A stretch of DNA of 64,000 bases from Elusimicrobiota bacterium (GCA_016209035.1 JACQWX010000029.1:1676-65675); one strand, 5' to 3'. Positions 15,201 to 36,197 are shown, numbered from the stretch's first letter. Translations and numbers: made by a program. Notes: a model not told the origin generated them from the letters alone.

Positions 15201-18200
15201 ACCGTCATCCAGGCCATTTCCCAGCCTGGCGAGACCGACGGCTACACGGTCAGCGTGGCTACCACCCAGACCCGCTACTTCAGGCTCAAGGCCGGGGACA
15301 GGGCCGGAAACCTCTCCACATTCTCCAACACCCTCTTCTTCGACCCGATCCCGCCGCAGATCGTCTCCGTGGACCTTGCCGAGGGCCCGGTCGTCTCCCG
15401 CCCCAGAAGCGTGACCGTCCAGGCCACGGACAACGTCGGGCTTGCCCAAGTCCTGTTCCGCGTTGACGGCGCGACCGTCGCCAGCATGGCTTCGCCGCCC
15501 TATTCCTTCATATGGGACACGCGTTTGCACTCGGACGGCATGCATGTGTTGCGGGGCGTCGCATACGATGTTGCCGGCAACACAGGAATTGCCGAGATCC
15601 CCGTGACGCTCAATTACATGCCCCCTGCGGCGCCGACCATTCTGTCTCCGGCGACCGGGTATGCCACGACGGTCGCGACCGTGAGCCTCTCAGGCATTGC
15701 GGAGGCCGGGACCACGGTTCAGCTTTTGATCAACGGCGGCCTGGCGTCGAGCGTGTGGGTCCCGCTCCAAGGAGGAATCGGAGGGTTCCAGTTTACGGAC
15801 GTGCCTCTCGCCTCGGAAGGCGTCAACACCTTGAACGTGCGGTCGTCGGACATCAAGGGAGCAAGTGCCAACTCCTCGGCCATCCAGGTGTTTCTGTATT
15901 TGGCGGCGCCTCCGCCTCCGCAGGGCGTGACGGCCGAGGCCCAGCCTGGAGGAACGGTCCGATTGGACTGGGTCGTGCCGTCCACTGGAACCGTCGCATT
16001 CTATAGGGTCTACAGAAGCACGGATGAGACCGTTTTCCTGAGCACCGAGCCCCTAGCCGCGGGCTTGAGGATCGCCGACAACGTCGTTGCCGTTCCTTTC
16101 CTGGACTCGCCGTCCACTGAAGCGGCCTACTTCTACGCCGTGACAGCCAACGATCCTGTGGGCAACGAAAGCTACTTGTCCGACATCGTATCAGCCGTCT
16201 CGGACAGGGGAGCCCCTTCCGCCTCGTTCCAGCTTGAGTCCGCCACCGGGCCTCTCGGTCCCGGGCAGCATCCTCTCCTGCTCACAGTGAGCGAGAACCT
16301 TGTCGCGATCCCCATCGTTACTTTCACGCCGCTGAACGGTTCCCCGCTTCCCGTGAACCTCGCGCCCCTTTCGCCCCTAGTCTGGAGAGGGACCGTCACC
16401 GTGACTTCAGCCATGCAGGAAGGAGCGGCAAACCTTGGCTTCCAGGGCTCCGACTATGTCGGCAACGTGGGCACTACGATAATCGCGGGAGGCACCCTGG
16501 TTCTTGACACCAAGGGCCCCTTGGGCGCGGTCTCCTTGGGCAAGGCTTCACCTGTGGGTCCCGGCCCCCTGGCCTTGACCTTGACCCTGAACGAGCCGGC
16601 AGTATCCACGCCTTCGCTTTCCTTCACGCCCTACGGCGGTTCGCCCCTGCCCATAGCCTTGGCCCAGTCCGTGGGCTCGACCGACAACAAGTCGTGGTCA
16701 GGGACAATTCTTGTCTCCTCCGGGACCGGCGACGGCCAGGCGACCTTCGCCTTCAGCGGCCAGGACCTGGTGGGCAACGCCGGAGACTCGCTCTCCGGAG
16801 GGACGACCTTCTTCGTGGTGGACGCGGTCCCGCCTGGCGCGCCCCGGTACCTGACCCCTGTCCCAGGCAAGGCGGGCGTCGTCCAATTGTCTTGGACAGT
16901 CCCCTTGGGCGAGAGGCCGTCGCGGTACACGGTCTACCGCGATGGGGAAAGAATCGCCGATGCGGTCCCTGTGAATTCCGACGGTTCCGGGACGTTCTCC
17001 GACCTCCCTGCCGAAGGCTCCCATGAGTACGCCGTAAGCGCCCTGGACGCCGCTGCCAACGAGGGTTCGCTCTCCGACCCCGTTTCCGCGACTTCGGACG
17101 CGACGGCTCCGCCTGCGCCCGCGAATCTGACTGCCGTACTCTACGGGTTCGGCCAAATTCAAATCACCTGGGAGCCTGGAGCCGGCGAGAGCCTTGCAAG
17201 CTACCGCCTCTACCGGACCACACACTCCATTTCGACCTTGGCCGGGCTGACACCCAGGCCTGCAGCCTCGCCCTACCTCGACTCGCCCACGGAGGACGCC
17301 ACCTACCATTATGTCGTGACCAGCCTGGACTCAGCCGGCAATGAGAGCCCCCCATCCTCCGAGGTTTCGCTCCTCTTTGACAAGGCCGCGCCGAGGATAG
17401 CTGTCTCAGGGGTGGCGGAAGGCGGGTTCTATAACGGGCCCGTGCTGCCTTCCTGGACCGTCGCGGACGGCAACCTTGATCCGTCGAGCGCGCGAGGCGC
17501 GCTCGATGGGAATCCGTTCGTTTCAGGTTCCATGGTTTCCGCCGAAGGCGGGCACGTTCTCTTGGTCACGGCCTCGGACACTGAAGGCCACGCCTCGACC
17601 GCGACGGTCTCCTTCACCCTGGACCTGACAACGCCGGCTATCAACATCTCCGGGGTCCAGGAAGGCGGGGTCTACCGCGGCACTGTGGCCGCGGTGATCA
17701 CGGCAACGGACCTGCATCTCTTGTCCACAAGCTACCTGCTCACGAACCTCACCCTGAATACCACGGTTCCCTATTCGTCCGGGGAGCCCATGGCGAGGAA
17801 CGGGTCCTATGTCCTGCGAGCCCAGGCCCAGGACAGGGCCGGGAATGATAGGACATCCGAGGTCTCCTTCACTCTGGAGGTTGGGCCGATAGCGCCCTTG
17901 AACCTTGCGGTGGAAGCGGCCAAAAGCGCTGGAGCGCGGTTGACTTGGCAGAAGCCCGAGCCCGGCGTGATCGCCTACCGGGTCTACCGTGACGACGCCA
18001 GGATCAGCGCGAGCCTTTACCAGGAGACGAGCTTCCAGGACAGCGGGTTCATCGCAGGGACAGAGCGCGTCTATGAAGTGTCGGCCGTGGACTATTCCGG
18101 GATAGAGGGTCCGAAGGCCAGAGTCACCGTGCCTGCGGTCTCCCTTGAGCTTGCGGGCTACGGCACGGCCAGGGATGGCAAGCAGTACCTGACCAGGGGC

Positions 18201-20921: not shown

Positions 20922-20925
20922 GACT

Positions 20926-21978
20926 ATGGTTGCGAGATTGATTGCCTTGGAGGAAGGCTGGCAACTGTGCAGGCGTATCGTTGCGCCAGAATGGTTATTG
21001 TCGTTGTCAGTAGATACTGAGAAGCAACGATTGATTTGGTCCTATCTTGATTTAGACAAGAATGTCATCAACAGACTGCGCACAGAAGCACCCCCACTCC
21101 CTTGCGATCCCGCGGTAATACTCCCCACCTGTGACCTCGTCTTTGCCAGCACACGCGGCATTTCATCTTTTCGGTTGTCTACATATGCAGAACAATTGCT
21201 CGTGCCAGCAGATAACAATTACATGGTTCGCAATCTATGGGTGTCCCCGAAGGATGATTTGGAACTGCTCTTCATTCAATCTGATCTGGGCATGTTATCA
21301 GATGCCTCCACTGCGGGAAAGGACATTGTTCATATCGTAAGAGAAGAAGCCGTCCTTGTCTCGTGGCATGCGAACACGGGACGATCCCGAATTGTTTCGA
21401 AGTTTTCGAGTATTCCGGTTTTTGCGGATGTGGCATGGGAACATGGAGCGTTTTTCGCCTCTCTAGCAAATGGCGAAGTAATCAGATGCGATTTGGAATC
21501 GGGTGTTGTATCCTTACGGGAGAGCCTAAAAGCCTATAGCTCGGTTGCCGTTTCTCCCAGAGGGACATTGCTGACCTGGGATGATATGGATTCAGGTGTT
21601 GTGGAGACTTGCCAAGATGGAACTTGTTCACGCCTGACGCCGTTCGGAGGATTTCCGGCCTTTTCACCGGGTGGCGAGGCAATGGCTTTCTTGCGACAGA
21701 ATAGTGAGTTGTGGCTAAAATCATCCGATGGGCAACTCCATCGAATCGTGGCATTCCCAAAAACGGACTCGAAAATATTTGATTTCCCCACATGGTGCCA
21801 TTGCGGCAATCATCTCGCCATCAATCTGGTTATTTCAGGACTAGGCCCTGTCAGGCAGATGCTGGTTGTTGCTGATTTCTCTCAGCGCTTAGTGTGTATG
21901 CAGGAACGTTCCTCGCCTGCGTCGTCTGGAGGACGTGCTTGGATTCCCAAGATTGCCCTATGTCGCCAACATTGTTGA
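20926..21978 (+). CDS. Hypothetical cytoplasmic protein (~350 aa), possibly degenerate TolB/PD40-like beta-propeller; low-GC
   Basis: The ORF begins immediately after the giant-1 stop. It has no signal peptide and blade-like motifs (FPAFSPGGEAMAF, SVAVSPRGTLLTW). GC is about 40-53%, against ~68% in the flanks. The first 25 codons of the listed ORF (from 20851) overlap giant 1 in another frame and were rejected. Confidence 0.5.
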   Translation: MVARLIALEEGWQLCRRIVAPEWLLSLSVDTEKQRLIWSYLDLDKNVINRLRTEAPPLPCDPAVILPTCDLVFASTRGISSFRLSTYAEQLLVPADNNYMVRNLWVSPKDDLELLFIQSDLGMLSDASTAGKDIVHIVREEAVLVSWHANTGRSRIVSKFSSIPVFADVAWEHGAFFASLANGEVIRCDLESGVVSLRESLKAYSSVAVSPRGTLLTWDDMDSGVVETCQDGTCSRLTPFGGFPAFSPGGEAMAFLRQNSELWLKSSDGQLHRIVAFPKTDSKIFDFPTWCHCGNHLAINLVISGLGPVRQMLVVADFSQRLVCMQERSSPASSGGRAWIPKIALCRQHC

Positions 21979-22162: not shown

Positions 22163-22987
22163 ATGTCTGTGAACATGCTGAATGCGCAATCGAGAAGTCA
22201 AGAGTGCAGCTCCGATCCAATGAATTTCATTCCCGCGTGGAAGGGATGCCGAGTCCACGGCTGGAGTTGCAGATGGGTACTGGTGTCACTGCTAGTCATG
22301 ATTCATTCGGTGCAACTTCCGGCGACAGAACCCATCGCCAAGATAACCCCACCCCTCGCGCGCGAGATTCAGAAGAACGAGCGAAGCATCGTCTTTGTCG
22401 ACGTTCGGTCACCCGCAGAATATGTTAAAGGGCATATCAAGGGGGCCCTTAATGTTCCTGTTGCAGACCTCCGCACTAGCACCATTCCGCAAGCCGATTT
22501 GGTGGTGGTCTATTGCCCCGACGAGGGATGTGCTCGTAGCGACCGTGCTGCATATGAATTGCTCGGCCTAGGCATCGCCAATGTGCGTGTGCTTGAGGGT
22601 GGCTTGGCCGGATGGCAACAGTACCGGTACCCTGTGGAACCTGCGCCTGCCGCAGCCCGCGTTGTCAGGATGTTGCCCGCGGAATTGCGTCGCTTGCTTG
22701 TGTCCTCTAAAATGATCGTGATTGACACCCGGCGCCATGATGAGTTCGTCGCCGGGCATGTTCCAGGGGCGGTGAATCTGCCGTTGGAAGGTCTGCCCGA
22801 GAGCTTGGCGTCAATGGAAAACAAAGGGCCCTGCGTGGTCTATGACCGGCTGCAGGAGCGCGCGCGCCAAGCAGCCATGATCTTGGCGGAGTCGGGGCGC
22901 GAAGCCCGCGAGCTTGTCGGCGGCATCGGGGCGTGGTCCAAGAAGGGCTATCCGATGGCGGTGGGGAATCAGTCCGAGGTGAAATGA
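22163..22987 (+). CDS. Tandem rhodanese-domain (sulfurtransferase-like) protein
   Basis: There are two rhodanese modules. The first has VFVDVRSPAEYVKGHIKGALNVP ... VVYCPDEGCARSD, with the CPDEGC active-site loop. The second has VIDTRRHDEFVAGHVPGAVNLP. Start is uncertain (an alternative is 22222). The stop overlaps the giant-2 ATG. Confidence 0.65.
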   Translation: MSVNMLNAQSRSQECSSDPMNFIPAWKGCRVHGWSCRWVLVSLLVMIHSVQLPATEPIAKITPPLAREIQKNERSIVFVDVRSPAEYVKGHIKGALNVPVADLRTSTIPQADLVVVYCPDEGCARSDRAAYELLGLGIANVRVLEGGLAGWQQYRYPVEPAPAAARVVRMLPAELRRLLVSSKMIVIDTRRHDEFVAGHVPGAVNLPLEGLPESLASMENKGPCVVYDRLQERARQAAMILAESGREARELVGGIGAWSKKGYPMAVGNQSEVK

Positions 22988-25900
22988 GGATCTGCATGCC
23001 GGGCGGTTGGCTGAGATTGTGGCGGGCGTTGATATTGGCGTCCGCCGTGATTCCTTCGTGGCAAGGGCTGTTGTCGGCCCAGGACGAGACGGTTTGCGCG
23101 GTTGTCAAGCTGGAGATCAAGCAGGAAGCCACGCTGGAGAGGGAGGCGTTCGACGCCCGCCTGCTGCTTAACAACAACTCGACGACTCAGCCCCTACAGA
23201 ATCTTTTCGTCAACTTTACAATCACCGATATCGACGGCAATCCGGCTGACATCCTTTTCTTCGTCAAGATCAGCTCGCTCAGCAACACCAACGCCATAGA
23301 CGGCACCGGCGTGGTCCAGTCCAGCAGCACGGCGGATATCCACTGGCTGATTATCCCTTCGACCGGCGCGGGCGGGAGCAATCCGCTGGGGCTGCGCTAT
23401 GCCATCCGGGCGAACATCTCCTACACGGCTAACGGCATCCCCCAGTTATTGAGCACTTTTGACGCTTTCATTACGGTGAAGCCTCAGCCTTCCACGAAGC
23501 TCGAATACGTCCTGCCCTACGAGGTGTTCTCTGACGAGCCCCTGACCGTTGAGATTGAGCCCATCGAGCCTTTCCCCTTGGGCGTGCGGGTGACCAACGT
23601 AGGCTATGGCACGGCCAGGAACTTCCAGATCGACTCAGCCCAGCCCAGGATAGTCGAGAACAAGCAGGGTTTGGCCGTTGACTTCAAGCTCCTGGGAACG
23701 GTGGTGGCTGGGAATACCATTCCTGATACCCTGCTTGTTCCTTTCGGCGACGTGGCTCCTGGGGGTGTTGGCCAAGCATCCTGGATCATGTCTACGACGC
23801 TCTCAGGCCGGTTCATCGAGTTCACCTCGACGTTTACCCACGCGGCCGAGCTTGGGGGTGCCCTCACATCCCTTATCCAGAGCGTGACGACCTACACCTT
23901 GCTCAAGGACGTTCTCGTGGACCTGCCTGGAAGGGACCGCGTGCCGGACTTCCTGGTCAACATGGGGCAGCCCAGGGGCGAGGGGATGCAGGCCCTGTTG
24001 GATTCTGGAGGAACCATTGCGGCTGAGTACATCCTGGAGTCCGACCAGCCGACACCGATCCAGGTTACCGAGGTTCCGGCGGCCGTTTCGGGAACCTTGG
24101 CAGGGACCAATGCGAGCCTGACGCTCTCGTTCGCGCAGCCGGTAGGATCCAATGTATGGGCCCATTCCTCCGTCCCGGTCGTGTTGCCGGCCGGAGTCAG
24201 CCTTGTGTTCGTAACGCGGTCGGACGGAAAGGCGCTCAATCCCGCCAACGGCTGGATATCCAAACACTTTCGGAAGTCAGACCGGTCCGTACTGCGCCGG
24301 CTCAACGTCATTGACCTGACATCGAGCGCGACGGCCTACGTTTTTAACTTCAGCGCCGCGGGCCTGGAGCAGGCGCCCGGCGCCGTCGCCGACCTGGCGG
24401 CTGCGACCGGCCAGCGTGGGGGTGAGCTCGCGTTGTCCTGGACCGCTCCTGGCGAGGACGGCCAGACAGGAGCGATACTGGGCGGACGGTATTTGATCCA
24501 GCACGAGGTTGACCAGAGCGCATCGTTCGCGCCCGCGGCGGCCCTGGTGGTCTTCGCCACCTCGACCGCTCCAGGCAGGATCGAACGCTATGTCCTGACC
24601 GGCGCGATCGGCAATACGACCAACTATCTCAGGCTCTGGACCCAGGACACGGGCGGCGCGATGTCCGGCATATCGAACGGCGCGACTGCATATGCCCTGC
24701 CCAATCCTCCGGCTCAAAGTGCTTTCGTGGCCGTCAGCTCGGAAGCGTTGGGAGTCTCCTGGGTAATCGGCAACAATAGCCTTCCGATCGAATATCAAGT
24801 GGTCGTGAACACGGACTTGGCCGAGCCTTTCGTGAGTTCAAGCCCGTTCTTCGGTTCCTTCCAGAACAGCTTCACTTTCGCTGGTCTTGCGCCCAATACC
24901 GCCTACACTCTCTTCGGCTTTGCCCGCAACCCTGAGACTGGGGCCAGGTCCGAGATGGCGGTCCTTGGGAGCACGACGACCTTGGCTACCCCGCCAGTTG
25001 CCCAGCCGTTCGCTGACCTGTCCACGAACAGCCTGACCGCTGCCTGGGCCATAGGGAGCAACCCTGCCGGGACCGAGTACTGGGTCGAGCTTTCGACCCT
25101 TCCTGAGCGAGCGCCGGTCATTGCCCAGAGCGGCTGGATCAGGGCCGGCAGCTTCACATTCTCCGGGCTTGCGTCCGCCACGACCTACTATGCCCGGGCC
25201 AAAGCGAGGAACCTGGGGCTGGTGGAGACTGGGTTCACGGACCTCGGGGCGGCATGGACGAGTTCCGCGGACAACATGCCTCCGAGGACCGGCCTTGTCG
25301 TGGGACTGCCCAGATTCGGCGCCGCCCCGGTCTTCGTTACTGACAAGACGACCTTCAGCTTTACGGTGGCCGACGACCTGGAGACGGTTGGGGACGGCGC
25401 GGGCTTGGGCGCGGCGTACACTATGGTGTCCGTGGATACCGCTCCTTTCTTCAACTTTGCCGCGGCCTTCAGCCTGGTCGAGCCCGGGATGCATACGATC
25501 CGGTACTACAGCGTGGACTACCTCAACAATGTCGAGACGGAACGTCAGGCTGCGGTGGTAGTCGACGCAATCGCTCCCGCAACCTCATTGGAAGTGTTGG
25601 GAAGCTCGAGGGTCGTGGGCGGGATGATTGAACTCTTTGAGGGGTCCAACATCACCTTGACAGCCAGTGATCCAGAACCTGTCGGTGTCGGCTCAGGGGT
25701 TGGAAGGACGATCTTCTTGATTGACACGGCTCCTGAGAACTGCATCGGGGGTGCGCCTGCTTGGCCGCCTGACCCTTCCTTTCCGCAAGGGAGTTGCCGA
25801 AACCCCGTCTTCACCGCTCCTTTCGCGCTCTCGAAAGGAACTCACACCGTCCTCTATTATTCAGTGGACCACGTCGGGAATACCGAGGTACCGGGATCAA

Positions 25901-28900
25901 TCGCTTTGAGTGTGTCGCGGCCTCCGGGGGATATCACGGAGACCGGGCGGGTTGATTTCAGGTTCTCATTCGGCGGCCAGGGAAGCGCGCCAGGGCAGTT
26001 CAATTTCATGTCAGACGTTAGCGTAGATCAGGAGGGCAACGTCTACGCGGCGGACTCTGGGAATGCGCGAATCCAGAAATTCAACCCCGCAGGGGGTTTT
26101 CTGCTGGCGTGGGGCAGCTATGGCAGCGGTCCAGGGCAGTTCTCCGGCTTATGGGCGATCAATGTGTGCGCAGGCTTCGCTGAACAACGCGTGGTTGCCG
26201 TTGACAACCCGAACCGGCGCGTCCAGATTTTCACCAGCACGGGCGGTCTTCTTGGGCAAATTGGGCCCGGTATCGGCGGTTCGACCTTCACCCTCAGCTA
26301 TCCAGTCGGCGTAGCCTGTGACGGGGCGGGACATGTCTATATTGGAGATCAGGGTCTGCGCTTGATCTTGAAAACGGACCAGACCGGTCGGCTCCTGGGT
26401 TCTTGGTCCATTCCCGAGGGGGGCATCGGCCGTATCGCTGTTGACATGTCCGGGATGGTCTATGTTTCCGTCGGACGAGCAGTCTTCAAATTCACGGCCG
26501 ATGGCACGCTGCTTCAGCGTTTCGGGGACCCGAATTCAACGCTAGGCAACCTGAGCCGCTCCCAAGGCATGGCCTTCGACATCTTCAACAACCTCTATGT
26601 AGGCGACAGTTGCACGGGGGGACAGGGTGTTCAGGTCTTCGCGCCTTCAGGAACCTTTCTTGCGAAATTCGGCGAACCTGGGACTGCGCCTGGGCAGTTC
26701 TTGAGTTACGTGGTGCAAGGCGTCGGGATCGACCGGTGGACGGGCAGGATTTTTGCGACCGATACCAGCGAGAATCGCGTTGAAGTGTTCGATGTCGCAG
26801 TCCCGACCACGGATATCAAGGCCCCGCTGACGAAGCTGCTGGTTCTGGGCCCATCCGGAGCAACCGGGGACGGCAATTTGATTGTCACTACGACCACCTT
26901 GCTCTCATTTGAATCCGTTGACTCGGCGCATCCTGGCATCGCTCCCTCCGGGGTCGCTTTCACCGAATATCGTTTGGATGAGACTGGTCCTTTCCAGCGG
27001 TTCACCACGCCCTTTGCGCTTGAATTCGTAGTGGCCGGATTCCCATATCGCGGTATCGAATACCGAAGCACGGACCATGCAGGCAACGTAGAGCCGGCCA
27101 GGCTCGTTCATGTCTATTTGGACTTCACGCCTCCTCGCTCCGCCCTCTTCTTCGATGAGAACCAAGTGACCCAGATGTTCGGCCCTGAGAGCATCGCTCT
27201 GCCCGGCGATCTGGCATTTCCGGAGACAGAATTCACCATTGTGGCGCATGATCCTGGGAATCCGTTTTCCGCCGGCGTCGGCACGGTCACCGCGGCCCTG
27301 GATGGGATGCCGGTAGAGCTGGAACGTAAGCCTGAGACCTCGCCATGTCCAGAGCCTCTGCATGGTTGGGACTGCGTCAGGCTGGATGTTCCTGGCCAGG
27401 AGCGGCCGCTCGCGGAAGGCCTGCATTTACTCACATGGCAGAGCGGCGACAAGACCGGCAATTTCGACATACCGCGGACAGTGTCATTCAATGTGGTGCG
27501 CAGGCCGCCAAATGTCGTCAACAACCCGGCGCACAAGTTCCTGACGGCCTTGCAAAGTCCTGAGCCTGACGGGTTCTTCGGCTTGACCGATTTGGCAGTC
27601 GACTTTTTCGGCAACGTGTACGTGGCCAACCTCGGCCCATACAAAGCAACGATATGGCGATTCTCCTCGGATGGCGCGCTGCTTCAGCAATTCCCGATTG
27701 ACGCGCAAGGCATGGATGTCGGGGTCAGTCCTGTTCGGCTGGCCATCAACCCGACACTTGACCGCAAGCTCCTGGTGACCGCGGGATACCATGTCGGTTT
27801 CTATACAACCGAGGGTTCGGTTCAGTACTTTCCGAGCACCTTCGGGGGCTTCAGCTTCGTCAACGCCTCCGACGCCGCCTTTGACTCCGCGGGAAACATC
27901 TATGTGGCGGATTCGGCGCAGGGCAAGATCTTCAAGTTCTCCCCGTCTCTTGAGTTCATCATGGCGTTCGGCGAGCGCGGAGGCGGTCAGTTCGTCACCG
28001 GCCCCGGTCGACTGGCGTCTGACCGGAACGGGCACATTTTTGCGACAGACACCAACCCGGGCCGCATCCTCAAATTCTCATCGGCGGGCGAATTCATCGG
28101 GAGCATCTCCGGCCCGATGGCGGAGCCCGACGGTCTCAGCACGGACATCTATGGCAATGTCCTTGTCGCGGACAGGAGTCTCAACGTCATTCATCTATTC
28201 AGCAGCACCGGCGCATTGGTGGGGCAAATAGGCTCTCCCGGCTCCGGTCAAGGCCAACTGGCGTCGCCCAGAGGATTGGACATCCATCTGCAAAGAGGAC
28301 GGGTCTATGTCGCGGACAGAGCCAATCAGCGTGTCCAGATATTCGCTCCGGATCTTCTCCCCGACACGGTCATGAACTTGCACGCCACGGCAACCATGGA
28401 GGGCGAGGTGCTCCTTTCCTGGACGGCTCCTGGGGAGGATGGCGGCACGGGCCAAGCCGCGAGCTATGAGCTGCGTTATTCTACGATGCCCATCACGAAC
28501 ATTTCGGAGTATCTCGAAGCCTCCACGGTCACGACGCCATCGCCTGGACCGGCCGGCTCGACCGAAACGCTGAGGATTGCCGGGCTGGCTGGGAACACGA
28601 GCTTCTACTTCGCATTGCGGGCATTTGACTCCGCCGGCAATCCGTCCGCCCTATCCAATACAGCCGTCGTCCGCACCCCATTCATCGTAAGAAGCGCCGC
28701 TATGATCAACGGCAATCCTGAGCTGTTGATGATAGCGTCGAACATCGAGCCTGCCGTTGTCTTGATCGACACCACCTCATCCGCCGGAGGTTTCGTGTTG
28801 GCCGCAGCCTCCAGCCAAACCCTGGAGCTGGCAAGCAACCTGTACGACGTAGGCCCTCCCGGCGCGGAATTCTCTCCTTTGGCCAGCCTTACCCTCAGGT

Positions 28901-31900
28901 ATTCCACGAAGACCCTGGCAGACCTTGGGCTGGCTGAGGCCCAGCTTGGCATCTACCGTTTCCACCCGCCTGCGGACCTTGTGAAAGTTCCGGGCCAGAC
29001 CTTGGACATGCAGGGAAGATTCCTGCGCGTGCCGATTGGGAGGGTGACCTCGATTTTCGGCATATTCGGCCCCATTCCGGACCGGACGCCGCCCCTTACC
29101 AGTCTCAGGGTGATTGGGGGCGGCCGGTTCGTGGACACTGAGGCCCGGCTCCTTGTCTCCTCAGACGCAGCCCTTGGGTTTGACGCCTTTGACCCCGTGG
29201 TGCGCGGAACCGCGTCTGGCGTGGCCTTCACCGAGTTCAGGGTGGACGCCGCCGCCGCCACTGCTCCATATTCGGTCTTTGTCTCGACATTCGGGCTGGC
29301 TGAAGGCGGCCACCTCATCGAGTTCCGCAGCCAGGATCATGCGGGCAACCTGGAAGTCACCAGGTCGAGCCAAGTGTTCGTCGACGCTGTCGCGCCGGCT
29401 ACGTCCCTTCTGGTCAACGGAACGGCTGTGGGTGCCGCGGAGGCCGTCATCATCTCCACCGACATCTTATCCTTCGCGTCTCAAGACGCGGGCTCCGGTG
29501 TCTCGGAGACCCTGTTCAAGATCGACGAGATGCCTGAACAGGTCTATGCCAGCACATTCACCCTGGCCGCAGGTACACATACCGTGACGTTCCGCAGCCG
29601 CGACAACGTGGGCAATGTCGAGTCTCTCAAGACCGCTCTGGTATCATCGCTGGCTCCGGATACCACGGCGCCGAGCCTGGCTTTCGTCCCGGTGGACGGC
29701 AGCACGCTTGCGACCTCGCGGCCCACCATCGCGGCGCTCTACTCGGACGAGGGGCGGGGGATCGACTTGACCTCGGTGAGGCTTGCCTTGGACGGGTTGG
29801 ACGTGACCAGCCAGGCCGTGGTCACGACATCCTCGGGCAGTTTCGTGCCGGCCGCCTCGCTGGCCCAAGGGAGCCACACCATCAATGCGTCCGTGACGGA
29901 CATGGCCGGAAACCTCGCGGCCGCGGCCGCGACTTTCATGCTGGACGTCACCCCGCCCTCGGTCGTCATTGAATCGCCCAATGGAGGCGAGGTCTATTTG
30001 GCCGGCGCAAGCACGATCCAGGTCCGGTTCGGGGTGACGGACAACGTTGACCCGGCTCCAGGATTCTACGCTTCCCTGGTTCAGCTGGAGGATCGAGGCA
30101 GTCCGCGCGGGAACCGGCCCGGGTTTGTCCCCGCGACTACGGGCCAGACGTTTGACCCGCTGGACTTGGATGACGGTTTATGGCGGCTCAAGGTTTCGGC
30201 GGCGGACTTCGTCATGAACTCCACTGCCCATTACTCCGGGGCGTTCGAGGTGATCCACGACACCCTTGCGCCGCGGACGCTCATGACAATCAGCGCCCCA
30301 CAGGCACCGGGCGGGCCCGGGGGAGCGGAATTTGTAAGCTCCAGGACCATGATCAACCTAAGCTCCGTGGACGACCTGGTCCTGGCGGGCGACGGCCAGG
30401 GGCTTGGGGTGGCTTGGCAGGCGTTGTCCGTGGATGGGATATTCAGGACGACCTTCACCAACCTAAGTCCGGCCTCCAGGCAGGTCTTTTCATCGAGCTT
30501 CACCCTGGCCACGGAACCTGACGGAATCCATGCATTGGCGTTCTTCGGCCAGGATGTGGTGGGCCATGTGGAGGCGCTCGGGTCCAAGGCCGTGGCTTTG
30601 GACGACACCCCGCCGTTGACCGGGCTTGTCCTCTCCACGCCCAGCTTCAACGGGTTCGTTTCTTCCAGGACGCTGCTGACCCTTGTCGCGGAGGACCCGG
30701 TGGCAGGCGGTGTCGCGTCGGGCGTTGAGTTCACGAGCTATCGGATCGGCGGCGGGGACTTCGTGCGGATGCCATTGAGCTTGAGCCTCGCGGGGCCGGA
30801 TGGCGCCTATGTCCTTGAGTTCCAAAGCCGGGACCGGGTGGAGAACCTGGAGGTGCTGCATTCTACCACGGTCTTACTGGACCAGACGCCTCCGGAGACC
30901 ACATTGAGCCTTGAAGGCCCTGTCTCAGGGGATTTCGTCACCTCGCAGGCCACCGTCGCCTTGGTATCTCATGACCCGGGGACGCTTCCCTCGGGAGCGG
31001 CGCTGACGCGCTACAAGATCAACGACGGCGCGTTTGTGATAGGCAGCCCGCTGTCGCAGTTTGGCCTCTCCGGGTCTGACGGGAACTATAGGATCCAATA
31101 CCAGAGCGAGGACCATGTGGCGAATCTGGAGGTTCTCCTGGAGAGGGTCCTAAAGCTCGACAATACGCCCCCCAAAACCGAGGCCGTCATTCAGGATACG
31201 GTATTCTTCGGCGTGGACGGCTCAACGTATGCGTCTCACGCGGCCGGACTGGGCCTGATCGCCGTTGACGCAGGCTCAGAGGTCGAGCGCACCGAGGCGG
31301 CTGTGGACGGCGAACCATTTGAGCCTTACAGCGCCCCGCTCACATTGGCCGAGGGCGTCCATGTGGTCCGGTACAGGTCTGTGGACAAGCTGGGAAACGT
31401 GGAAACCGAGCGCTCCCTCTCCCTGAAAGTGGACGGGACACCACCGACCACCACGGCCCAGGTCGGCGAGCCTTCCTTTATGGATGCGCAGGGGAAGCAT
31501 TACGTTACCCCGGCCACCGCGGTTTCCTTCTCGGCTCTCGACCCTGGTCTGGCTTTTAGCACCGTCCCTGGCTCTGGGCTGAGCCTGATCGAAGTCGCCA
31601 TGGACACCGGGCCATTCAGCGCTTTTACGAGAAGCTTGACGTTCACGGAGGGCAGGCACACGGTCTTCTTCAGGGCTGTCGACCGGGTGGGCAACGTCGA
31701 GGTAATCCGCACGCTGAGCCTGCGATCCGACGCCACGCCGCCGATCACGGCCATGAAGCCAAGCGGAGAGTTCTTCACGGCCGGGGCCAGGGATTTCGCT
31801 CCTGGGCACTTCACCTATTCCCTGCCCGCCGAAGACCCTGCGGCCAAGGACGTGGCCTCAGGCGTGGCCTGGACGCGCTTCGGCCTTGACCATGGCCCCT

Positions 31901-34900
31901 TGGCCGCCTTCACTTCCGCCTTCAGCCTGACCGAGGGCATCCGGCTCGTGAGCTTCCAGAGCCAGGACAACGTGGAGAACCTTGAGCTTCTCAAGAATTC
32001 CACGGTCTACGTGGACGCCACCGCGCCCGCGACGGCCTTGGCCATCGGAGGCCCGAGCTTCGACCCAGGAGAGGGCCGGCCCGTGTTCGTGGCCTTGAAG
32101 ACCATGCTTGGTTTGCCTTCCATCGATCCTGAGGTCTTGGGCGCGGCCTCAGGCGTGCGGGAAGCGAGGTTCCGACTGGATTCGGGCGCTTTCCAGATCT
32201 TCGCCGCGCGGTTCACGGTCCCTCTTCCTGAGGGACCGCACCAGATCGAGTGGTTCGGTACGGACAACGTGGGCAACGCCGAGGTCCTCAAGTCTACGGC
32301 CATAGCCTTGGACGACACTGCTCCCTTGACCAGCCTGGCTGTCCTGGCAGGCCGGCAAGCGCGCGCGCCGGAGCCTGAAAGCTTCTTTGCCTCTTCGGAT
32401 ACGGCCTTGGCCTTCGTATCCACCGACCCTGCGGCAGGCTGGCCGGCCTCGGGCCTGGGCTTGACCGAGTTCCAGGACAATGCCGGCCCGTTCGAGGCTT
32501 TCAGCGCGGCATTCAGCCTTACTGAAGGCGTCCACAGGCTCGGCTACCGAAGCCGAGATCGGGTGGACAACCTCGAGGTCCTGGCTAGCACGACCGTCTT
32601 GGTTGACGCGACCCCGCCTGTCTCGATCCTTGCCATCGGCACGCCCCAGGCCAAGGTGGTCCCCGGGCAGGGTCATGGCCCCATGGGGCTGACCATTGTT
32701 TCCAGCATCGCGCCTTTGGTCGTCATTTCCACGGACCCGGTTTCCCGGGAAGTCAACTCCGGGCTGGAGCAAGTCCATGTGAGCACAGGTTTTGGTTTCT
32801 CCACCTCGACCGCTGCTTTCAGGCTTGACGGGGTTGACGGGATCAAGACGGTATCCTTCTACGCCTTCGACCGGGTGGGCAACACGGAGGCTTTCCAGAC
32901 GGGCGAGGTCGGGTTGGACAATACCGCGCCTCTGACTTCACTCGCGTATGTGGGCGGGCGCCAGTTCAGGACTCAGGACAAGGTCTTTGCGTCCACCACC
33001 ACCGCCTACCGGTTCGACGCGGGCGATCCTGTGGCGGGCGGGATAGCTGCCGGGGTGGACTTCACGGAATTCTCGATCGACTCCGGCCCGCTTTCCAGGT
33101 TCGCGTTCGACTTCACGCTCGCAGAAGGCGTTCGGACGATTGCATGGCGCTCGCAGGACCGCGTCGCGAACCTGGAGACCCTGGTCTCGACAGCGGTGCA
33201 TGCGGACGCGACTCCTCCCATATCGTCCACGACCCTCACGGGCCCAAGGTTCCTGTCCGCGGGCCAGGCCGGCACGGTCGGCGGGCCGCTATTCATCGCG
33301 TCTTCCACCCTGGTGGGTTTGAGGTCCGAGGATCCGATGTCGAACGGGGTTGCCTCAGGCTTGAACCGGATCATGGCAGCCTTGGACGGCGGGACCACGA
33401 GCGTCTTCTGGTTGGACTCCCCCATTGTCGCTGAGGGCACCCACACCCTCGTCTACCAGGGGTTCGACAACGTTGAGAACGCCGAGACTTCCAGGGTGTT
33501 CAAGGTGAGTGTGGACTCGACCCCGCCGGTGACCGATATCTCATTCCTGGGTGTCGCATCCTTCCTGCCCGGCCTGCCTGAGCAGGCCCGTGTCTTCATC
33601 GCATCCGGCACCAGGGTCGCGCTCGCGGCACAAGACCCCGTGTCGCGGAACACAGCCTCCGGCGTGCTTCTCACCCGCTACCGGATCGGCCAAGGCCTGG
33701 GAGGCCACCCTGGCCCTTGGACCGCAACCCAAGGTCCCTTCTTGCTGCCAGGTGAGGGCCTGCATCTGGTCGAATGGCAGTCCCAAGACAAAGTCGAGAA
33801 CCTTGAACAGGCCAAGGTCATGCTCATCGCGGTGGACCAGACCCCGCCCGAGACCTCGGTCAGCTTCGGCGAACCCGGATTCAGGGGCTTCGGCTTCGAC
33901 CTCATAGCGTCCGACACGCCCATAACCCTCACCAGTCAGGACCCATTGTCGAGCGGCGTGGCATCGGGAGCCGCGGAGATCACATACCGGGCTGACGGCG
34001 GTCCGCTCCAGGTCTACGTCAGTTCCTTCACGCTTCCCCAGGGCATGCACACCCTGGAGTACGGAGCCGTAGACCGCGCGCAAAACGCCGAGACGCGCAA
34101 GACCGTAGGCGTGGCGGTGGCGGACTTCGTGCTGGGAGCCGTTGCGGGGGTGGACGGGATTTCCGGCTCCGGGACCTCGGACATCACAGGGCTGGTGCAG
34201 TCCAATGGCAACGTGGACCTCTCGGGGAACGTGGCGGTTGTAGGGGACGTCACGGCCTATTCCGTGACCCTGAAGGGCCAGGCAACGGTTTCCGGCAATA
34301 TCATCCAGGGGGCCTCCCCGCTCGTGGCCGAGTCGATCGACCTGGCGCTGATTGAGCAGTTGGCCCAGGCTTCAAGCTCGAACATCCTCATTCCTGAGAG
34401 CTTCCTCAAGAACGGGGCGCTGAGCATAAGCGGTCAGAAGACCTTGACGCTCAGCACGGGCGTCTATGTGGTGGAGGGTCTTGAGATAAACGGCGGCGCA
34501 AGCCTTAGAACACAGGGCCCCGTGAGCCTGCTGGTGCGCGGGCCCGTGAAGGTCGAGGGAGGCGGAGCCTTGAACGCGGACGGACGAGCCTCCCAGTTCG
34601 TGGTATTCTCCAATGGGAGCCAAGGCGCGTTCTTCGGAGGCGGGGCCCGGGTTCTGGGACTCTTCTATGCGCCTCACGCGGCGCTGCTCATCGCGGGCAA
34701 CAGCCAGATCGGAGGGCACCTGTTTGGAAAGACTGTGGCCTTGAGCGGCACCTCCAACATCGTCCAGTCCGGAGAAACCCTGCCTCAGCTGGTTGCAAGC
34801 TCGGGAGGGAAAGACAAGAAGCTCTCCTTGGCCAGAACGGCCATGGCAGGCTTGGGCCCCGATCCCGCCTTCCGCTATCACGACCACTATGCCTTCCCCA

Positions 34901-35181
34901 ATCCCTCGAGGGGGACAAATCCTACAATACGGGTGCAGGTGGGCATGGCGGACTCGGTTCAGGTGCAGATTTACGACGCAGCCGGGAGCATGGTACATAA
35001 CGACTTCTTCGGGGTTCCAAGGGTCCTTGACGACAGCAACGGCAAGGGCGACCAGTACACTTACGACTATGTCTGGAACGTGGGCCGCATGGGCTCCGGA
35101 GTCTACATCTACGTCATCACCGCGACCAAGGCCGGTGAGAAGCCCATCCGGAAGACCGGAAAAGCAGGAGTGATCCGCTGA
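22984..35181 (+). CDS. Giant (4065 aa) T9SS-type secreted cargo: N-terminal novel domain, FN3s, two NHL six-bladed beta-propellers, ~17-19 tandem Ig-like (HYR/Big-like) repeats, DUF3494 ice-binding-like beta-helix, C-terminal Por/T9SS sorting domain
   Basis: The signal peptide is MRICMPGGWLRLWRALILASAVIPSWQG. NHL blades include DQEGNVYAADSGNARIQKFNPAGGFL and GNVLVADRSLNVIHLFSSTGALV. FN3 units include LSWTAPGEDGGTGQAASYELRYS. Periodic D-x-T-P/A-P-x-T ... SGV ... YRSxDxVGNxE units recur every ~300 nt. The beta-helix segment reads TLSTGVYVVEGLEINGGASLRTQGPVSLLVRGPVKVEGGGAL. The CTD reads YAFPNPSRGTNPTIRVQV...VQIYDAAGSMV...SGVYIYVITATKAG. Confidence 0.85.
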   Translation: MRICMPGGWLRLWRALILASAVIPSWQGLLSAQDETVCAVVKLEIKQEATLEREAFDARLLLNNNSTTQPLQNLFVNFTITDIDGNPADILFFVKISSLSNTNAIDGTGVVQSSSTADIHWLIIPSTGAGGSNPLGLRYAIRANISYTANGIPQLLSTFDAFITVKPQPSTKLEYVLPYEVFSDEPLTVEIEPIEPFPLGVRVTNVGYGTARNFQIDSAQPRIVENKQGLAVDFKLLGTVVAGNTIPDTLLVPFGDVAPGGVGQASWIMSTTLSGRFIEFTSTFTHAAELGGALTSLIQSVTTYTLLKDVLVDLPGRDRVPDFLVNMGQPRGEGMQALLDSGGTIAAEYILESDQPTPIQVTEVPAAVSGTLAGTNASLTLSFAQPVGSNVWAHSSVPVVLPAGVSLVFVTRSDGKALNPANGWISKHFRKSDRSVLRRLNVIDLTSSATAYVFNFSAAGLEQAPGAVADLAAATGQRGGELALSWTAPGEDGQTGAILGGRYLIQHEVDQSASFAPAAALVVFATSTAPGRIERYVLTGAIGNTTNYLRLWTQDTGGAMSGISNGATAYALPNPPAQSAFVAVSSEALGVSWVIGNNSLPIEYQVVVNTDLAEPFVSSSPFFGSFQNSFTFAGLAPNTAYTLFGFARNPETGARSEMAVLGSTTTLATPPVAQPFADLSTNSLTAAWAIGSNPAGTEYWVELSTLPERAPVIAQSGWIRAGSFTFSGLASATTYYARAKARNLGLVETGFTDLGAAWTSSADNMPPRTGLVVGLPRFGAAPVFVTDKTTFSFTVADDLETVGDGAGLGAAYTMVSVDTAPFFNFAAAFSLVEPGMHTIRYYSVDYLNNVETERQAAVVVDAIAPATSLEVLGSSRVVGGMIELFEGSNITLTASDPEPVGVGSGVGRTIFLIDTAPENCIGGAPAWPPDPSFPQGSCRNPVFTAPFALSKGTHTVLYYSVDHVGNTEVPGSIALSVSRPPGDITETGRVDFRFSFGGQGSAPGQFNFMSDVSVDQEGNVYAADSGNARIQKFNPAGGFLLAWGSYGSGPGQFSGLWAINVCAGFAEQRVVAVDNPNRRVQIFTSTGGLLGQIGPGIGGSTFTLSYPVGVACDGAGHVYIGDQGLRLILKTDQTGRLLGSWSIPEGGIGRIAVDMSGMVYVSVGRAVFKFTADGTLLQRFGDPNSTLGNLSRSQGMAFDIFNNLYVGDSCTGGQGVQVFAPSGTFLAKFGEPGTAPGQFLSYVVQGVGIDRWTGRIFATDTSENRVEVFDVAVPTTDIKAPLTKLLVLGPSGATGDGNLIVTTTTLLSFESVDSAHPGIAPSGVAFTEYRLDETGPFQRFTTPFALEFVVAGFPYRGIEYRSTDHAGNVEPARLVHVYLDFTPPRSALFFDENQVTQMFGPESIALPGDLAFPETEFTIVAHDPGNPFSAGVGTVTAALDGMPVELERKPETSPCPEPLHGWDCVRLDVPGQERPLAEGLHLLTWQSGDKTGNFDIPRTVSFNVVRRPPNVVNNPAHKFLTALQSPEPDGFFGLTDLAVDFFGNVYVANLGPYKATIWRFSSDGALLQQFPIDAQGMDVGVSPVRLAINPTLDRKLLVTAGYHVGFYTTEGSVQYFPSTFGGFSFVNASDAAFDSAGNIYVADSAQGKIFKFSPSLEFIMAFGERGGGQFVTGPGRLASDRNGHIFATDTNPGRILKFSSAGEFIGSISGPMAEPDGLSTDIYGNVLVADRSLNVIHLFSSTGALVGQIGSPGSGQGQLASPRGLDIHLQRGRVYVADRANQRVQIFAPDLLPDTVMNLHATATMEGEVLLSWTAPGEDGGTGQAASYELRYSTMPITNISEYLEASTVTTPSPGPAGSTETLRIAGLAGNTSFYFALRAFDSAGNPSALSNTAVVRTPFIVRSAAMINGNPELLMIASNIEPAVVLIDTTSSAGGFVLAAASSQTLELASNLYDVGPPGAEFSPLASLTLRYSTKTLADLGLAEAQLGIYRFHPPADLVKVPGQTLDMQGRFLRVPIGRVTSIFGIFGPIPDRTPPLTSLRVIGGGRFVDTEARLLVSSDAALGFDAFDPVVRGTASGVAFTEFRVDAAAATAPYSVFVSTFGLAEGGHLIEFRSQDHAGNLEVTRSSQVFVDAVAPATSLLVNGTAVGAAEAVIISTDILSFASQDAGSGVSETLFKIDEMPEQVYASTFTLAAGTHTVTFRSRDNVGNVESLKTALVSSLAPDTTAPSLAFVPVDGSTLATSRPTIAALYSDEGRGIDLTSVRLALDGLDVTSQAVVTTSSGSFVPAASLAQGSHTINASVTDMAGNLAAAAATFMLDVTPPSVVIESPNGGEVYLAGASTIQVRFGVTDNVDPAPGFYASLVQLEDRGSPRGNRPGFVPATTGQTFDPLDLDDGLWRLKVSAADFVMNSTAHYSGAFEVIHDTLAPRTLMTISAPQAPGGPGGAEFVSSRTMINLSSVDDLVLAGDGQGLGVAWQALSVDGIFRTTFTNLSPASRQVFSSSFTLATEPDGIHALAFFGQDVVGHVEALGSKAVALDDTPPLTGLVLSTPSFNGFVSSRTLLTLVAEDPVAGGVASGVEFTSYRIGGGDFVRMPLSLSLAGPDGAYVLEFQSRDRVENLEVLHSTTVLLDQTPPETTLSLEGPVSGDFVTSQATVALVSHDPGTLPSGAALTRYKINDGAFVIGSPLSQFGLSGSDGNYRIQYQSEDHVANLEVLLERVLKLDNTPPKTEAVIQDTVFFGVDGSTYASHAAGLGLIAVDAGSEVERTEAAVDGEPFEPYSAPLTLAEGVHVVRYRSVDKLGNVETERSLSLKVDGTPPTTTAQVGEPSFMDAQGKHYVTPATAVSFSALDPGLAFSTVPGSGLSLIEVAMDTGPFSAFTRSLTFTEGRHTVFFRAVDRVGNVEVIRTLSLRSDATPPITAMKPSGEFFTAGARDFAPGHFTYSLPAEDPAAKDVASGVAWTRFGLDHGPLAAFTSAFSLTEGIRLVSFQSQDNVENLELLKNSTVYVDATAPATALAIGGPSFDPGEGRPVFVALKTMLGLPSIDPEVLGAASGVREARFRLDSGAFQIFAARFTVPLPEGPHQIEWFGTDNVGNAEVLKSTAIALDDTAPLTSLAVLAGRQARAPEPESFFASSDTALAFVSTDPAAGWPASGLGLTEFQDNAGPFEAFSAAFSLTEGVHRLGYRSRDRVDNLEVLASTTVLVDATPPVSILAIGTPQAKVVPGQGHGPMGLTIVSSIAPLVVISTDPVSREVNSGLEQVHVSTGFGFSTSTAAFRLDGVDGIKTVSFYAFDRVGNTEAFQTGEVGLDNTAPLTSLAYVGGRQFRTQDKVFASTTTAYRFDAGDPVAGGIAAGVDFTEFSIDSGPLSRFAFDFTLAEGVRTIAWRSQDRVANLETLVSTAVHADATPPISSTTLTGPRFLSAGQAGTVGGPLFIASSTLVGLRSEDPMSNGVASGLNRIMAALDGGTTSVFWLDSPIVAEGTHTLVYQGFDNVENAETSRVFKVSVDSTPPVTDISFLGVASFLPGLPEQARVFIASGTRVALAAQDPVSRNTASGVLLTRYRIGQGLGGHPGPWTATQGPFLLPGEGLHLVEWQSQDKVENLEQAKVMLIAVDQTPPETSVSFGEPGFRGFGFDLIASDTPITLTSQDPLSSGVASGAAEITYRADGGPLQVYVSSFTLPQGMHTLEYGAVDRAQNAETRKTVGVAVADFVLGAVAGVDGISGSGTSDITGLVQSNGNVDLSGNVAVVGDVTAYSVTLKGQATVSGNIIQGASPLVAESIDLALIEQLAQASSSNILIPESFLKNGALSISGQKTLTLSTGVYVVEGLEINGGASLRTQGPVSLLVRGPVKVEGGGALNADGRASQFVVFSNGSQGAFFGGGARVLGLFYAPHAALLIAGNSQIGGHLFGKTVALSGTSNIVQSGETLPQLVASSGGKDKKLSLARTAMAGLGPDPAFRYHDHYAFPNPSRGTNPTIRVQVGMADSVQVQIYDAAGSMVHNDFFGVPRVLDDSNGKGDQYTYDYVWNVGRMGSGVYIYVITATKAGEKPIRKTGKAGVIR
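29080..34110 (+). repeat. Intragenic tandem array of ~17-19 diverged ~300-nt (100-aa) Ig-like repeat units inside the giant-2 gene
   Basis: Unit boundaries are marked by DxTPPxT/DxTAPxT at ~29080, 29390, 29660, 29950, 30260, 30600, 30880, 31160, 31430, 31730, 32010, 32310, 32610, 32920, 33200, 33510 and 33830. Each unit shares SGV.., Y..DGG.F and (Y)RS.D.VGN.E motifs. Further isolated units occur at ~25560 and ~27120. Confidence 0.7.
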
Positions 35182-36197
35182 TGAAAGTCATCCATCCGTC
35201 GCGCCCCCTGCCGCCCACGCCTTTCCTGACGGCGCAGGGGACCTGGCCCTCCAATCTCCTGGAAGGCCAGGGCCTCCGGCCTGGACCGCGCCTTGCGCTC
35301 GTGGCCGTGGCGCTCGTGGTCGCGTGCTTGCCCGCCCGGGCCGGCGAGACCGCCCAGTTCTTGAAGATAGGGGTGGGAGCCCGTGCAGTAGGAATGGGAG
35401 GCGCCTACACCGCGGCAGGTGATGACTTGAACTCCATGGCCTGGAACCCCGGGGGCATGGCGAGCCTGACCAAGCGCGAAGCGGGCGCCATGTACGCCAA
35501 CTTGGTGGCTGAGACGCACTACAGCTTCATGGGCTACGGCCAGCCGACGAAGTACGGCACTTTCGGGGCTGGGATCATGTACCTGGGCCAAGGCTCGCTG
35601 GATGGCAGGGATTCCCAGGGCAGGGCCAATGGTGGATTCACGGCCTCGGACATGGCATTGGGCGTATCGTACGCCAAGACGGTGCTCCCGAGGCTGGGCT
35701 TAGGCGTCAACGTCAAGTTAGTCAGGACGAACGTCGGCTCGGACACGGGCTATTCCGTTGCTTTCGACCTGGGCTCAAGGTACGACCTGGGCAGGATGGG
35801 GCCAGGGAGCTTGGCGGCTGGGTTGGCGGTGTTGAACCTTGGGCCCGGCATCAGGCTGCACGAGCAAAGCTCGGACTTGCCGTTGGTGTTGGCGACCGGA
35901 CTTGGGTACAATCTTCCTTTCGGCTTGAACTTCGGGCTGGACTTCAGGAACAGGCCCTATGCCGGAAGCTCGGAGGTGAGCCTTGGGACTGAGCTTGCGG
36001 TGGTTCCCCAGTTGGCCTTGAGGATGGGGTATGCTTCGACTCATGGGCTCATCTCAGGGGCGTACAAGACGAGCGACTTGATGGGGCTGGCTGCCGGGTT
36101 CGGGGTGAAGGCCTACGGGATGAGCCTGGATTACTCCATGACGCCCTTTGGGGGGCTGGGGAACAGCCACAGGATTAGTCTAGGGAGCAGATTTTAG
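35181..36197 (+). CDS. PorV/PorQ-family-like outer-membrane beta-barrel protein (putative T9SS cargo shuttle); ATG shares a nucleotide with giant-2 stop
   Basis: It has a hydrophobic signal-like segment and the N-terminal motif [31 protein letters not shown], typical of the PorV/UPF0164-type barrel family. The rest is an alternating Gly/aromatic beta-strand pattern with a C-terminal Phe. The family assignment is made from memory of the motif and has not been searched. Confidence 0.55.

Follow-up and report, generated by a model that had tools for sequence, protein, structure and literature searches.

The stretch of DNA analyzed here, 64,000 nucleotides of an Elusimicrobia metagenome-assembled genome (GCA_016209035.1, JACQWX010000029.1:1676-65675; referred to in its full length as the window), encodes a very large secreted protein, giant 2, between the genes for a tandem rhodanese-like protein and for an outer-membrane beta-barrel of the PorV/PorQ family. 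Sequence comparison across related loci indicates that this trio of genes comprises two pairings that are independent of each other and meet in a single protein. The barrel accompanies the C-terminal domain of giant 2 no matter which passenger that domain is attached to, and the rhodanese accompanies the N-terminal domain irrespective of the type of C-terminal anchor. The coupling of the three genes is tight and evolutionarily conserved, and is therefore no accident of one genome, but a first-pass annotation of the window, which had read the three genes as one unit, did not separate the two pairings. As an overall explanation, we lean toward giant 2 being an adhesin-like surface fiber with a barrel-anchored tail and a thiol-partnered tip.

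Giant 2 is encoded between two overlapping partner genes

The three genes are arranged as follows.

22163..22987, + strand: tandem rhodanese-like gene (Pfam Rhodanese, 126 bits)
22984..35181 including the stop codon, + strand: giant 2, putative fibrillar surface protein of 4,065 amino acids (aa) (open reading frame [ORF], junctions, and domain scans)
35181-36197, + strand: gene for a PorV/PorQ-family (FadL-like) outer-membrane beta-barrel (NF033709, 164 bits; fold search)

The ORF of giant 2 is open throughout 22933..35181. The rhodanese stop and the giant 2 start overlap as ATGA at 22984-22987, and the giant 2 stop and the barrel start overlap as TGATG at 35179-35183, where the TGA at 35179-35181 and the ATG have one base in common, so both of the overlaps first reported (at 22984-22987 and at 35181) are confirmed. 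In the NCBI record (MBI4676746.1, “hypothetical protein”), the protein has 4,082 aa and starts at GTG 22933, which gives an overlap of 55 nucleotides (nt) with the rhodanese gene. Because overlap junctions recur in related loci, with “aaATGA” between rhodanese stop and giant start in five of them, while four more have TAATG, TAGTG, or 8 nt in common, we favor ATG 22984 as the probable start, which gives the 4,065-aa product of the first-pass annotation; ATG 22996 is also possible. The database entry should lose its “hypothetical” label, and its start should probably be placed at ATG 22984.

Along its length, giant 2 carries the following segments.

22984..23079, + strand: signal peptide, aa 1-32, predicted cleavage after LSA (read from the sequence; orthologues have equivalents)
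23080..24393, + strand: N-terminal “tip” module, aa 33-470, a predicted beta-sandwich stack (conserved; invariant Cys, Gln, His, and Asp)
24394..25308, + strand: about three FN3-like units, aa 471-775 (Pfam fn3; repeat matches in related loci)
25315..25944, + strand: two OmpL47-type Ig-like units, aa 778-987 (self-profile search; NF047446)
25966..26793, + strand: NHL beta-propeller 1, six blades, aa 995-1270 (Pfam NHL, SGL, and DUF5128; blade count)
26851..27534, + strand: two OmpL47-type Ig-like units, aa 1290-1517 (self-profile search)
27565..28353, + strand: NHL beta-propeller 2, six blades, aa 1528-1790 (Pfam; blade count)
28366..28647, + strand: FN3 domain, aa 1795-1888, with about 155 unassigned aa behind it (Pfam)
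29122..34128, + strand: stalk of 16 OmpL47-type Ig-like units, aa 2047-3715 (NF047446; self-profile search)
34129..34773, + strand: beta-solenoid DUF7305, aa 3716-3930 (PF23981, 47 bits)
34861..35178, + strand: C-terminal sorting/anchor domain of T9SS (type IX secretion system) type-A kind, 106 residues, aa 3960-4065 (Por_Secre_tail; profiles)

Much of the architecture proposed at first held up. Pfam confirmed the FN3 units, and both NHL propellers are complete (Pfam NHL, 74 bits), with five blades each found by the self-profile search and a sixth, divergent blade read by eye in the gap of each. Tandem Ig-like repeats are indeed present, with 20 OmpL47-type units in total, 16 of them in one run, in place of the claimed ~17-19; the OmpL47 model NF047446 matches giant 2 with 491 bits in 15 stretches, and the run holds one differing Ig-like insert at about aa 2335-2445. 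The predicted DUF3494 ice-binding-like beta-helix was not borne out. The DUF3494 model (PF11999) gave no match to the isolated beta-helix segment even at E = 0.1, and the segment is matched instead by DUF7305 (47 bits) and weakly by the FapA solenoid. This solenoid is conserved in locus L009 and in P0125-P0127. In several other Elusimicrobia cargos (L007, L009, and L086; P0128 and P0129), a ZU5 domain stands directly ahead of the tail, where giant 2 has DUF7305; ZU5 is autoproteolytic in some eukaryotic proteins.

The C-terminal domain is paired with its own PorV/PorQ-family barrel

The sequence evidence supports the assignment of the tail of giant 2 to the T9SS type-A-like sorting domains: the single protein scores below the model cutoffs, but its family clearly belongs. 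Twelve of the 13 members of the tail family match Por_Secre_tail (E ≤ 0.01; best E, 5.7e−10), and the tail from locus L022 exceeds the PF18962 cutoff (35.4 bits). The motifs sought as diagnostic of type-A C-terminal domains (CTDs) were aromatic-PNP, I/V-x-I/V-Y-D-x-x-G, G-x-Y, and a terminal K-x-x-V/I, and the very end of the family alignment reads YAFPNP, V-x-I-YD-x-x-G, SGVY-x-Y, and K-x-GK-x-GVI-K/R. The giant 2 tail has an extra loop, DDGNGKG. The tail-family profile aligns end to end with the CTD of Porphyromonas gingivalis PorU (6za2 residues 1055-1154; E = 2.6e−6), an uncleaved tail that is its best match among solved structures, and related tails match the PorZ tail. A word-indexed homologue search with the C-terminal 426 aa of giant 2 returned only five matches, a set too shallow for further use.

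The barrel protein is identical to MBI4676747.1, encoded on a 76-kb contig and annotated at NCBI as “PorV/PorQ family protein [Elusimicrobia bacterium],” and the PorV-like identity first given to it was confirmed by its score against the family model NF033709 (164.4 bits; cutoff, 90). Against Pfam PorV, it scores 25.8 bits, slightly under the cutoff of 27, and its scores fall well short of the cutoffs for PorQ (NF033711; 113.3 bits versus an equivalog cutoff of 220), PorV (NF033710; 67.7 versus an equivalog cutoff of 250), and PorV2 (67.4 versus 325). By these scores, the protein is a member of the family and not an orthologue of PorV, PorQ, or PorV2. Its AlphaFold2 (AF2) model (predicted local distance difference test [pLDDT], 87.8) is consistent with the 14-strand FadL-like fold; the top folds in the PDB are those of Flavobacterium johnsoniae PorV (8gl6_F and 6h3i_F; E of about 3e−13, TM-score of 0.68 to 0.69), and TodX and FadL come next. 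The barrel begins with MKVI (MKTI... in homologues) and has a proline/glycine-rich insertion of about 37 aa in the n-region of its signal peptide (window 35181-35345), which makes it 338 aa long compared to about 301 aa in homologues. The portion of this insertion that was read shows no other start codon in frame.

To place this pair in a wider context, we scanned the barrel alignment over species-representative genomes and then ran profile searches on the flanks of the resulting loci. In the Elusimicrobia loci L002-L010, the tail of giant 2 ends the ORF directly upstream of the barrel gene (phmmer E from 1e−36 to 1e−21); the same tail occurs upstream of the barrel with weaker matches in L022/L023, and it is also found in the orthologue loci L085, L086, L092, and L096. 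The passengers upstream of the barrels in L002-L010 and L022/L023 are otherwise unrelated. They carry NHL, Kelch, or PQQ propellers, LamG, TIG, ZU5, or DUF7305 domains and range from 379 to 1,901 aa; a wider set of passengers, which includes a deacetylase, spans 379 to 5,827 aa. Upstream of other Elusimicrobia barrels are proteins with PorZ-like or TIGR04183 tails, among them a polysaccharide deacetylase. Stop and start codons of cargo and barrel overlap (ATGA, GTGA, TAATG, or TGATG) in the window and in all six of its closest loci, and overlapping tail-barrel pairs were present in all 10 of the related loci examined for them. The identities of tails and barrels co-vary across 14 pairs (Spearman 0.77; Mantel P = 2e−4).

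In Coatesbacteria and Caldithrix loci, the gene that immediately precedes the barrel encodes a genuine PorU (429 and 608 bits), and the Coatesbacteria locus also has an overlap between porU and porV. Because of these loci, the layout of a tail-bearing gene followed by a barrel gene generalizes the canonical porU-porV arrangement. The first-pass annotation had called the gene layout undescribed; it has precedents, since a tail-bearing gene next to a PorV-family barrel is the canonical arrangement and type-B cargos with PorP/SprF barrels are also known (PMC9143113).

These similarities bear on whether giant 2 is an ordinary T9SS cargo. Under this explanation, a full T9SS (Sov/SprA, PorKLMN, and PorU) would be encoded elsewhere in the genome and would export giant 2, the barrel would be an extra PorV-type shuttle, and the tail would be cleaved, with a lipid or lipopolysaccharide (LPS) anchor in its place. 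The match of the tail family to Por_Secre_tail, the PorV fold of a PorV/PorQ-family barrel, and the porU-porV pair of the same layout in Coatesbacteria and Caldithrix all fit such a cargo. However, the host belongs to Elusimicrobia, and we found no report of a T9SS in this phylum and no paper substantively tying the system to it in the literature searched, where a preprint on giant genes names Elusimicrobia as a data source only. Among 14 upstream genes of the Elusimicrobia type that were searched with domain libraries, not one encodes a PorU sortase, and two PorU queries searched against the loci returned only self-matches. Moreover, each barrel in the Elusimicrobia loci has its own cargo gene, while in Bacteroidota one PorV serves dozens of cargos. 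Finally, in line with the first-pass annotation, no T9SS core gene was found among the ten other large ORFs scanned in the 64 kb of the window, which are housekeeping genes or have no family match. We regard an ordinary T9SS cargo as a rather unlikely explanation, but as a serious rival.

The barrel had also been proposed as an outer-membrane shuttle or anchor of giant 2. Of these two roles, that of a dedicated anchor is the better fit, because the barrel scores higher against PorQ than against PorV and the tail best matches the uncleaved tails of PorU and PorZ. A further alternative assigns the export itself to the barrel, so that tail and barrel would form a two-partner secretion and anchoring pair assembled by the BAM (beta-barrel assembly) complex and independent of a translocon. 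One-to-one, translationally coupled pairs occur in Elusimicrobia and in some other candidate phyla outside the Fibrobacteres-Chlorobi-Bacteroidetes (FCB) group, and this strict pairing would suit an exporter, as would the presence of the cassette in differing contexts (next to relaxase or recombinase genes), expected of a self-contained unit. On the other hand, the translocon structures solved so far (6h3i and 8gl6) show PorV in an accessory position beside the 36-strand SprA, and a 14-strand FadL-type barrel is not known to be able to pass folded 400-kDa proteins. A translocon-independent pair is more interesting than an ordinary T9SS encoded elsewhere but less likely, and we consider it improbable.

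Two loci add further examples of barrel neighbors. An Elusimicrobiota locus (L005, 9480-15839) has three PorV-like genes in about 6 kb. Tail-bearing genes accompany two of these, and one such gene encodes a polysaccharide-deacetylase-like protein with “choice-of-anchor Z” repeats. In a Latescibacteria locus (L055, 6552-9887), the gene upstream of the barrel matches “T9SS-dependent M6-like inactivated metalloprotease” (NF052323; 204 bits, below the cutoff of 600), which adds a further case in which a barrel is paired with one particular tail-bearing protein.

The N-terminal module is paired with rhodanese-like and alternative partners

The N-terminal module of giant 2 (~440 residues) was described as novel, and it has no match among Pfam or NCBIfam models. 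It is not unique, though: the module belongs to a family with 2,672 cluster representatives (E ≤ 1e−3) that is widespread in Proteobacteria, Desulfobacterota, and Elusimicrobia, with members in cultured Chitiniphilus, Jeongeupia, Pelomonas, Kangiella, Methylomonas, and Desulfonema. The module nearly always lies at the N-terminus of large proteins, whose C-terminal ends vary (dockerin-like, hydrophobic or PEP-CTERM-like, or a T9SS-like tail). A cysteine three to five residues past the signal cleavage site is invariant in 145 of 145 representatives, and Gln, His, and Asp positions are likewise invariant. The AF2 model of the module (pLDDT, 88) is a beta-sandwich stack with generic structural neighbors only.

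Scanning metagenomes with an alignment of the N-terminal domain yielded 80 further loci and a set of 82 loci, 13 close and 69 distant. The nearest members of the family are giant 2 orthologues that end in the same tail. Their loci share the gene order of the window: a giant-1-like gene, a 548-aa gene, rhodanese, a 4,151-aa giant, and barrel (L085; giant 1 of the window is described below), as well as rhodanese, a 2,197-aa giant, and barrel (L086).

The rhodanese-like protein of the window has two domains (PF00581, 126 bits) and an N-terminal hydrophobic segment, which suggests that it is exported or membrane anchored. Domain 1 has a Cys at the catalytic position (YC-PDEG-C, i.e., YC-x4-C), where domain 2 has an Asp. 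Fold and catalytic Cys place the protein among the putative rhodanese sulfurtransferases. The NCBI record has a shorter, 229-aa form that starts at an internal Met and loses the hydrophobic N-terminus.

A rhodanese-like gene is adjacent and on the same strand in all 13 close loci, nine of which have overlapping junctions (ATGA, TAATG, TAGTG, or 8 nt). Of the 69 distant loci, 26 have it as an adjacent gene; where enough flank is available on both sides (14 loci), the count is 9. A transglutaminase-like neighbor occurs in 22 distant loci, and an exported CxxC glutaredoxin-like neighbor in nine distant loci and in Chitiniphilus purpureus. Across the 82 loci, 52 have at least one of the three partners, and rhodanese and glutaredoxin are almost mutually exclusive. 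In the literature searched, no paper joins rhodanese and transglutaminase to large surface proteins. In L100, L106, L107, L109, L120-L123, L152, and others, inactive rhodanese-like genes and transglutaminase-core genes of about 330 aa are neighbors of the N-domain gene, with variable order around it.

The rhodanese could alternatively be a small redox or sulfur-metabolism gene that shares a mobile cassette with giant 2 and is functionally unrelated to it. We initially inferred such an incidental linkage from 84 loci of PorV-like paralogues, none of which has a rhodanese nearby, and reversed the conclusion after true orthologues had been found. The paralogue loci were misleading because they carry different cargos. 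The loss of the catalytic Cys in most distant homologues would also suit an unrelated gene. Against it stand the adjacency in the close and distant loci, where the two genes share a strand without exception and their stop and start codons often overlap, and the fact that the gene tracks the N-terminal domain regardless of the type of C-terminal anchor. As a rough estimate that was not computed, the probability of chance adjacency is well under 1%. We regard an incidental linkage as highly improbable.

A proposed model for giant 2 and its comparison to known systems

Both linkages are statistically solid, and from them we propose a function and a mechanism. Giant 2 would consist of two partner-dependent end modules linked by a long variable stalk. 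Its type-A-like tail would remain uncleaved and dock noncovalently on its own PorV/PorQ-family barrel, encoded by the overlapping downstream gene, with one barrel per cargo, and the fiber would thus be held on the outer membrane as PorQ holds PorZ and PorV holds PorU. The N-terminal 440-residue module would form the distal tip bearing the invariant cysteine. The co-translated, membrane-anchored rhodanese-like protein (C-x4-C) may service this tip in the periplasm: while the protein is exported, it would maintain the cysteine as needed, whether reduced, persulfidated, or in a mixed disulfide. The NHL propellers, the FN3 domains, the 20 OmpL47-type units, and the DUF7305 solenoid would serve as spacer and binding surface, consistent with a role in adhesion.

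Several points weigh against this model. The claim that giant 2 ends in a Por_Secre_tail domain is supported by the tail family and its motifs, but the protein itself scores 24.6 to 25 bits against PF18962 (cutoff, 27) and 17.5 bits against TIGR04183 (cutoff, 23). Co-variation of tails and barrels could arise from co-inheritance alone. The N-terminal module has only a generic beta-sandwich similarity, so its designation as an adhesive tip is drawn from topology. The catalytic Cys (YC-x4-C) is kept only in the rhodaneses of the close group and is replaced by N, D, or G elsewhere. Because most distant rhodaneses lack it, “sulfurtransferase,” the role first suggested for this protein, is not the conserved one, even though the gene is a rhodanese with a Cys in domain 1; instead of thiol chemistry, the conserved role may be to bind or chaperone. 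The crossing of the outer membrane by a 430-kDa protein is unexplained unless a translocon is encoded elsewhere. Finally, promoter and terminator scans gave nothing beyond the shuffled expectation, and co-transcription of the three genes is suggested by their overlaps alone.

Three known systems resemble parts of giant 2. Like PorZ-PorQ and PorU-PorV of the Bacteroidota T9SS attachment complex, giant 2 appears to be a protein with a type-A-like CTD held by a 14-strand barrel of the PorV/PorQ family. It differs in that its passenger is an adhesin-like fiber and not a sortase or LPS-delivery protein, in that the many cargos of Elusimicrobia each appear to have a barrel of their own, in that the barrel of the window falls below the PorQ and PorV equivalog cutoffs (113 versus 220 and 68 versus 250 bits), and in that its host phylum is not known to have a T9SS. 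In the second system, cargos with type-B CTDs have cognate PorP/SprF barrels (SprB-SprF and PG1035-PorP), and adjacency of cargo and barrel is known (PMC9143113). As there, a large adhesin-like protein is encoded beside a barrel that would be its dedicated CTD-binding anchor, one cargo to one barrel, but giant 2 has a type-A-like tail and a PorV/PorQ-family barrel, and the type-B cases depend on the T9SS translocon. Third, the stalk of giant 2 is built from beta-sandwich units of the OmpL47 type, as in Leptospira OmpL47 and fibrillar Ig-repeat adhesins. OmpL47 has few units (336-position model), compared to 20 units in the 4,065 aa of giant 2, which also has other end modules. Giant 2 is not an OmpL47 orthologue, because the equivalog cutoff is reached through repeat summation alone.

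For the N-terminal pairing, PspE rhodanese and DsbG offer a lead: they are small periplasmic thiol-handling proteins, and a single cysteine exposed on a secreted protein could be their substrate. In contrast to these general housekeeping factors, the partner of giant 2 is genetically dedicated to one client family, and partners of the N-terminal module are often inactive as enzymes, or a glutaredoxin-like or transglutaminase-like gene stands in their place.

The components of giant 2 and its neighbors are of known kinds (a type-A-like tail, a PorV/PorQ-family barrel, a rhodanese, and an Ig/NHL adhesin stalk). What appears to be undescribed is the one-cargo-one-barrel organization in a phylum outside FCB, and the unnamed N-terminal family with its conserved pairing to rhodanese-, glutaredoxin-, or transglutaminase-like partners. 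If the tail-barrel pairs are dedicated anchors in a phylum without a recognized T9SS, type IX anchoring would be separable from translocation, which would bear on the evolution of T9SS, and the two genes of a pair would make a small tool for displaying proteins on the cell surface. Thousands of large secreted proteins begin with the N-terminal module, some of them in cultured Proteobacteria, and its pairing with an exported thiol-type partner offers a testable clue to the function of many uncharacterized surface proteins.

A bolder extension, which we judge unlikely, is that giant 2 unites two undescribed partner-dependent systems. The first would be a stand-alone tail-barrel display system, in which the pairs of Elusimicrobia and neighboring candidate phyla display cargo without a Sov/SprA translocon and a PorKLMN motor; such a pair could be the ancestral form that was recruited into the T9SS attachment complex. 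The second would be a reactive-cysteine tip, whose chemistry (covalent capture by thioester or disulfide, or transglutaminase cross-linking) would be set up by the dedicated exported rhodanese-, glutaredoxin-, or transglutaminase-like partner.

Genomic setting of the cassette

The remaining features around the three genes are as follows.

11426-12268, + strand: skp/OmpH (ORF and domain library scans)
12270..20921, + strand: giant 1, predicted secreted protein of 2,883 aa, first gene of the cassette (signal peptide and Pfam domains)
20851..21978, + strand: orphan ORF of ≤375 aa (GC content of about 0.53, no signal peptide, no known family)
from 36209, + strand: lpxD, fabZ, and lpxA (downstream of the barrel gene)

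An Rfam scan of the whole window gave no match. The start of giant 1 lies 2 nt past the skp stop. Behind its signal peptide, Pfam identifies FN3, Big, and CarboxypepD_reg domains, and the C-terminus is rich in Cys. We considered giant 1 as a second T9SS cargo and rejected this possibility, as the protein has no sorting domain and the window no second barrel. In L085, L090, and L095, a giant-1 homologue lies upstream of the rhodanese gene. The N-domain system may include giant 1 as another large secreted protein. Homologues of its last 600 residues (window 19700-20918) are found beside N-domain genes in L105, L110, L112, and L166.

The orphan ORF has no Pfam or NCBIfam match and no homologue among the 82 related loci, and these searches gave no support to its being a hidden barrel or transglutaminase. 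The matching position in L085 is occupied by the unrelated 548-aa gene. The ORF is probably not a functional part of the cassette and may be a pseudogene or a recent insertion.

In Gram-negative bacteria, skp and lpxD are usually adjacent. Here, they are parted by about 24 kb of DNA with a lower GC content (0.53 to 0.65, compared to 0.68 to 0.70 around it), and the five-gene cassette spans window positions 12270-36197. Orthologous cassettes adjoin a TrwC relaxase gene (L085) and a serine recombinase gene (L086). The lower GC content, the split of skp from lpxD, and the relaxase and recombinase neighbors suggest that the cassette is horizontally mobile.

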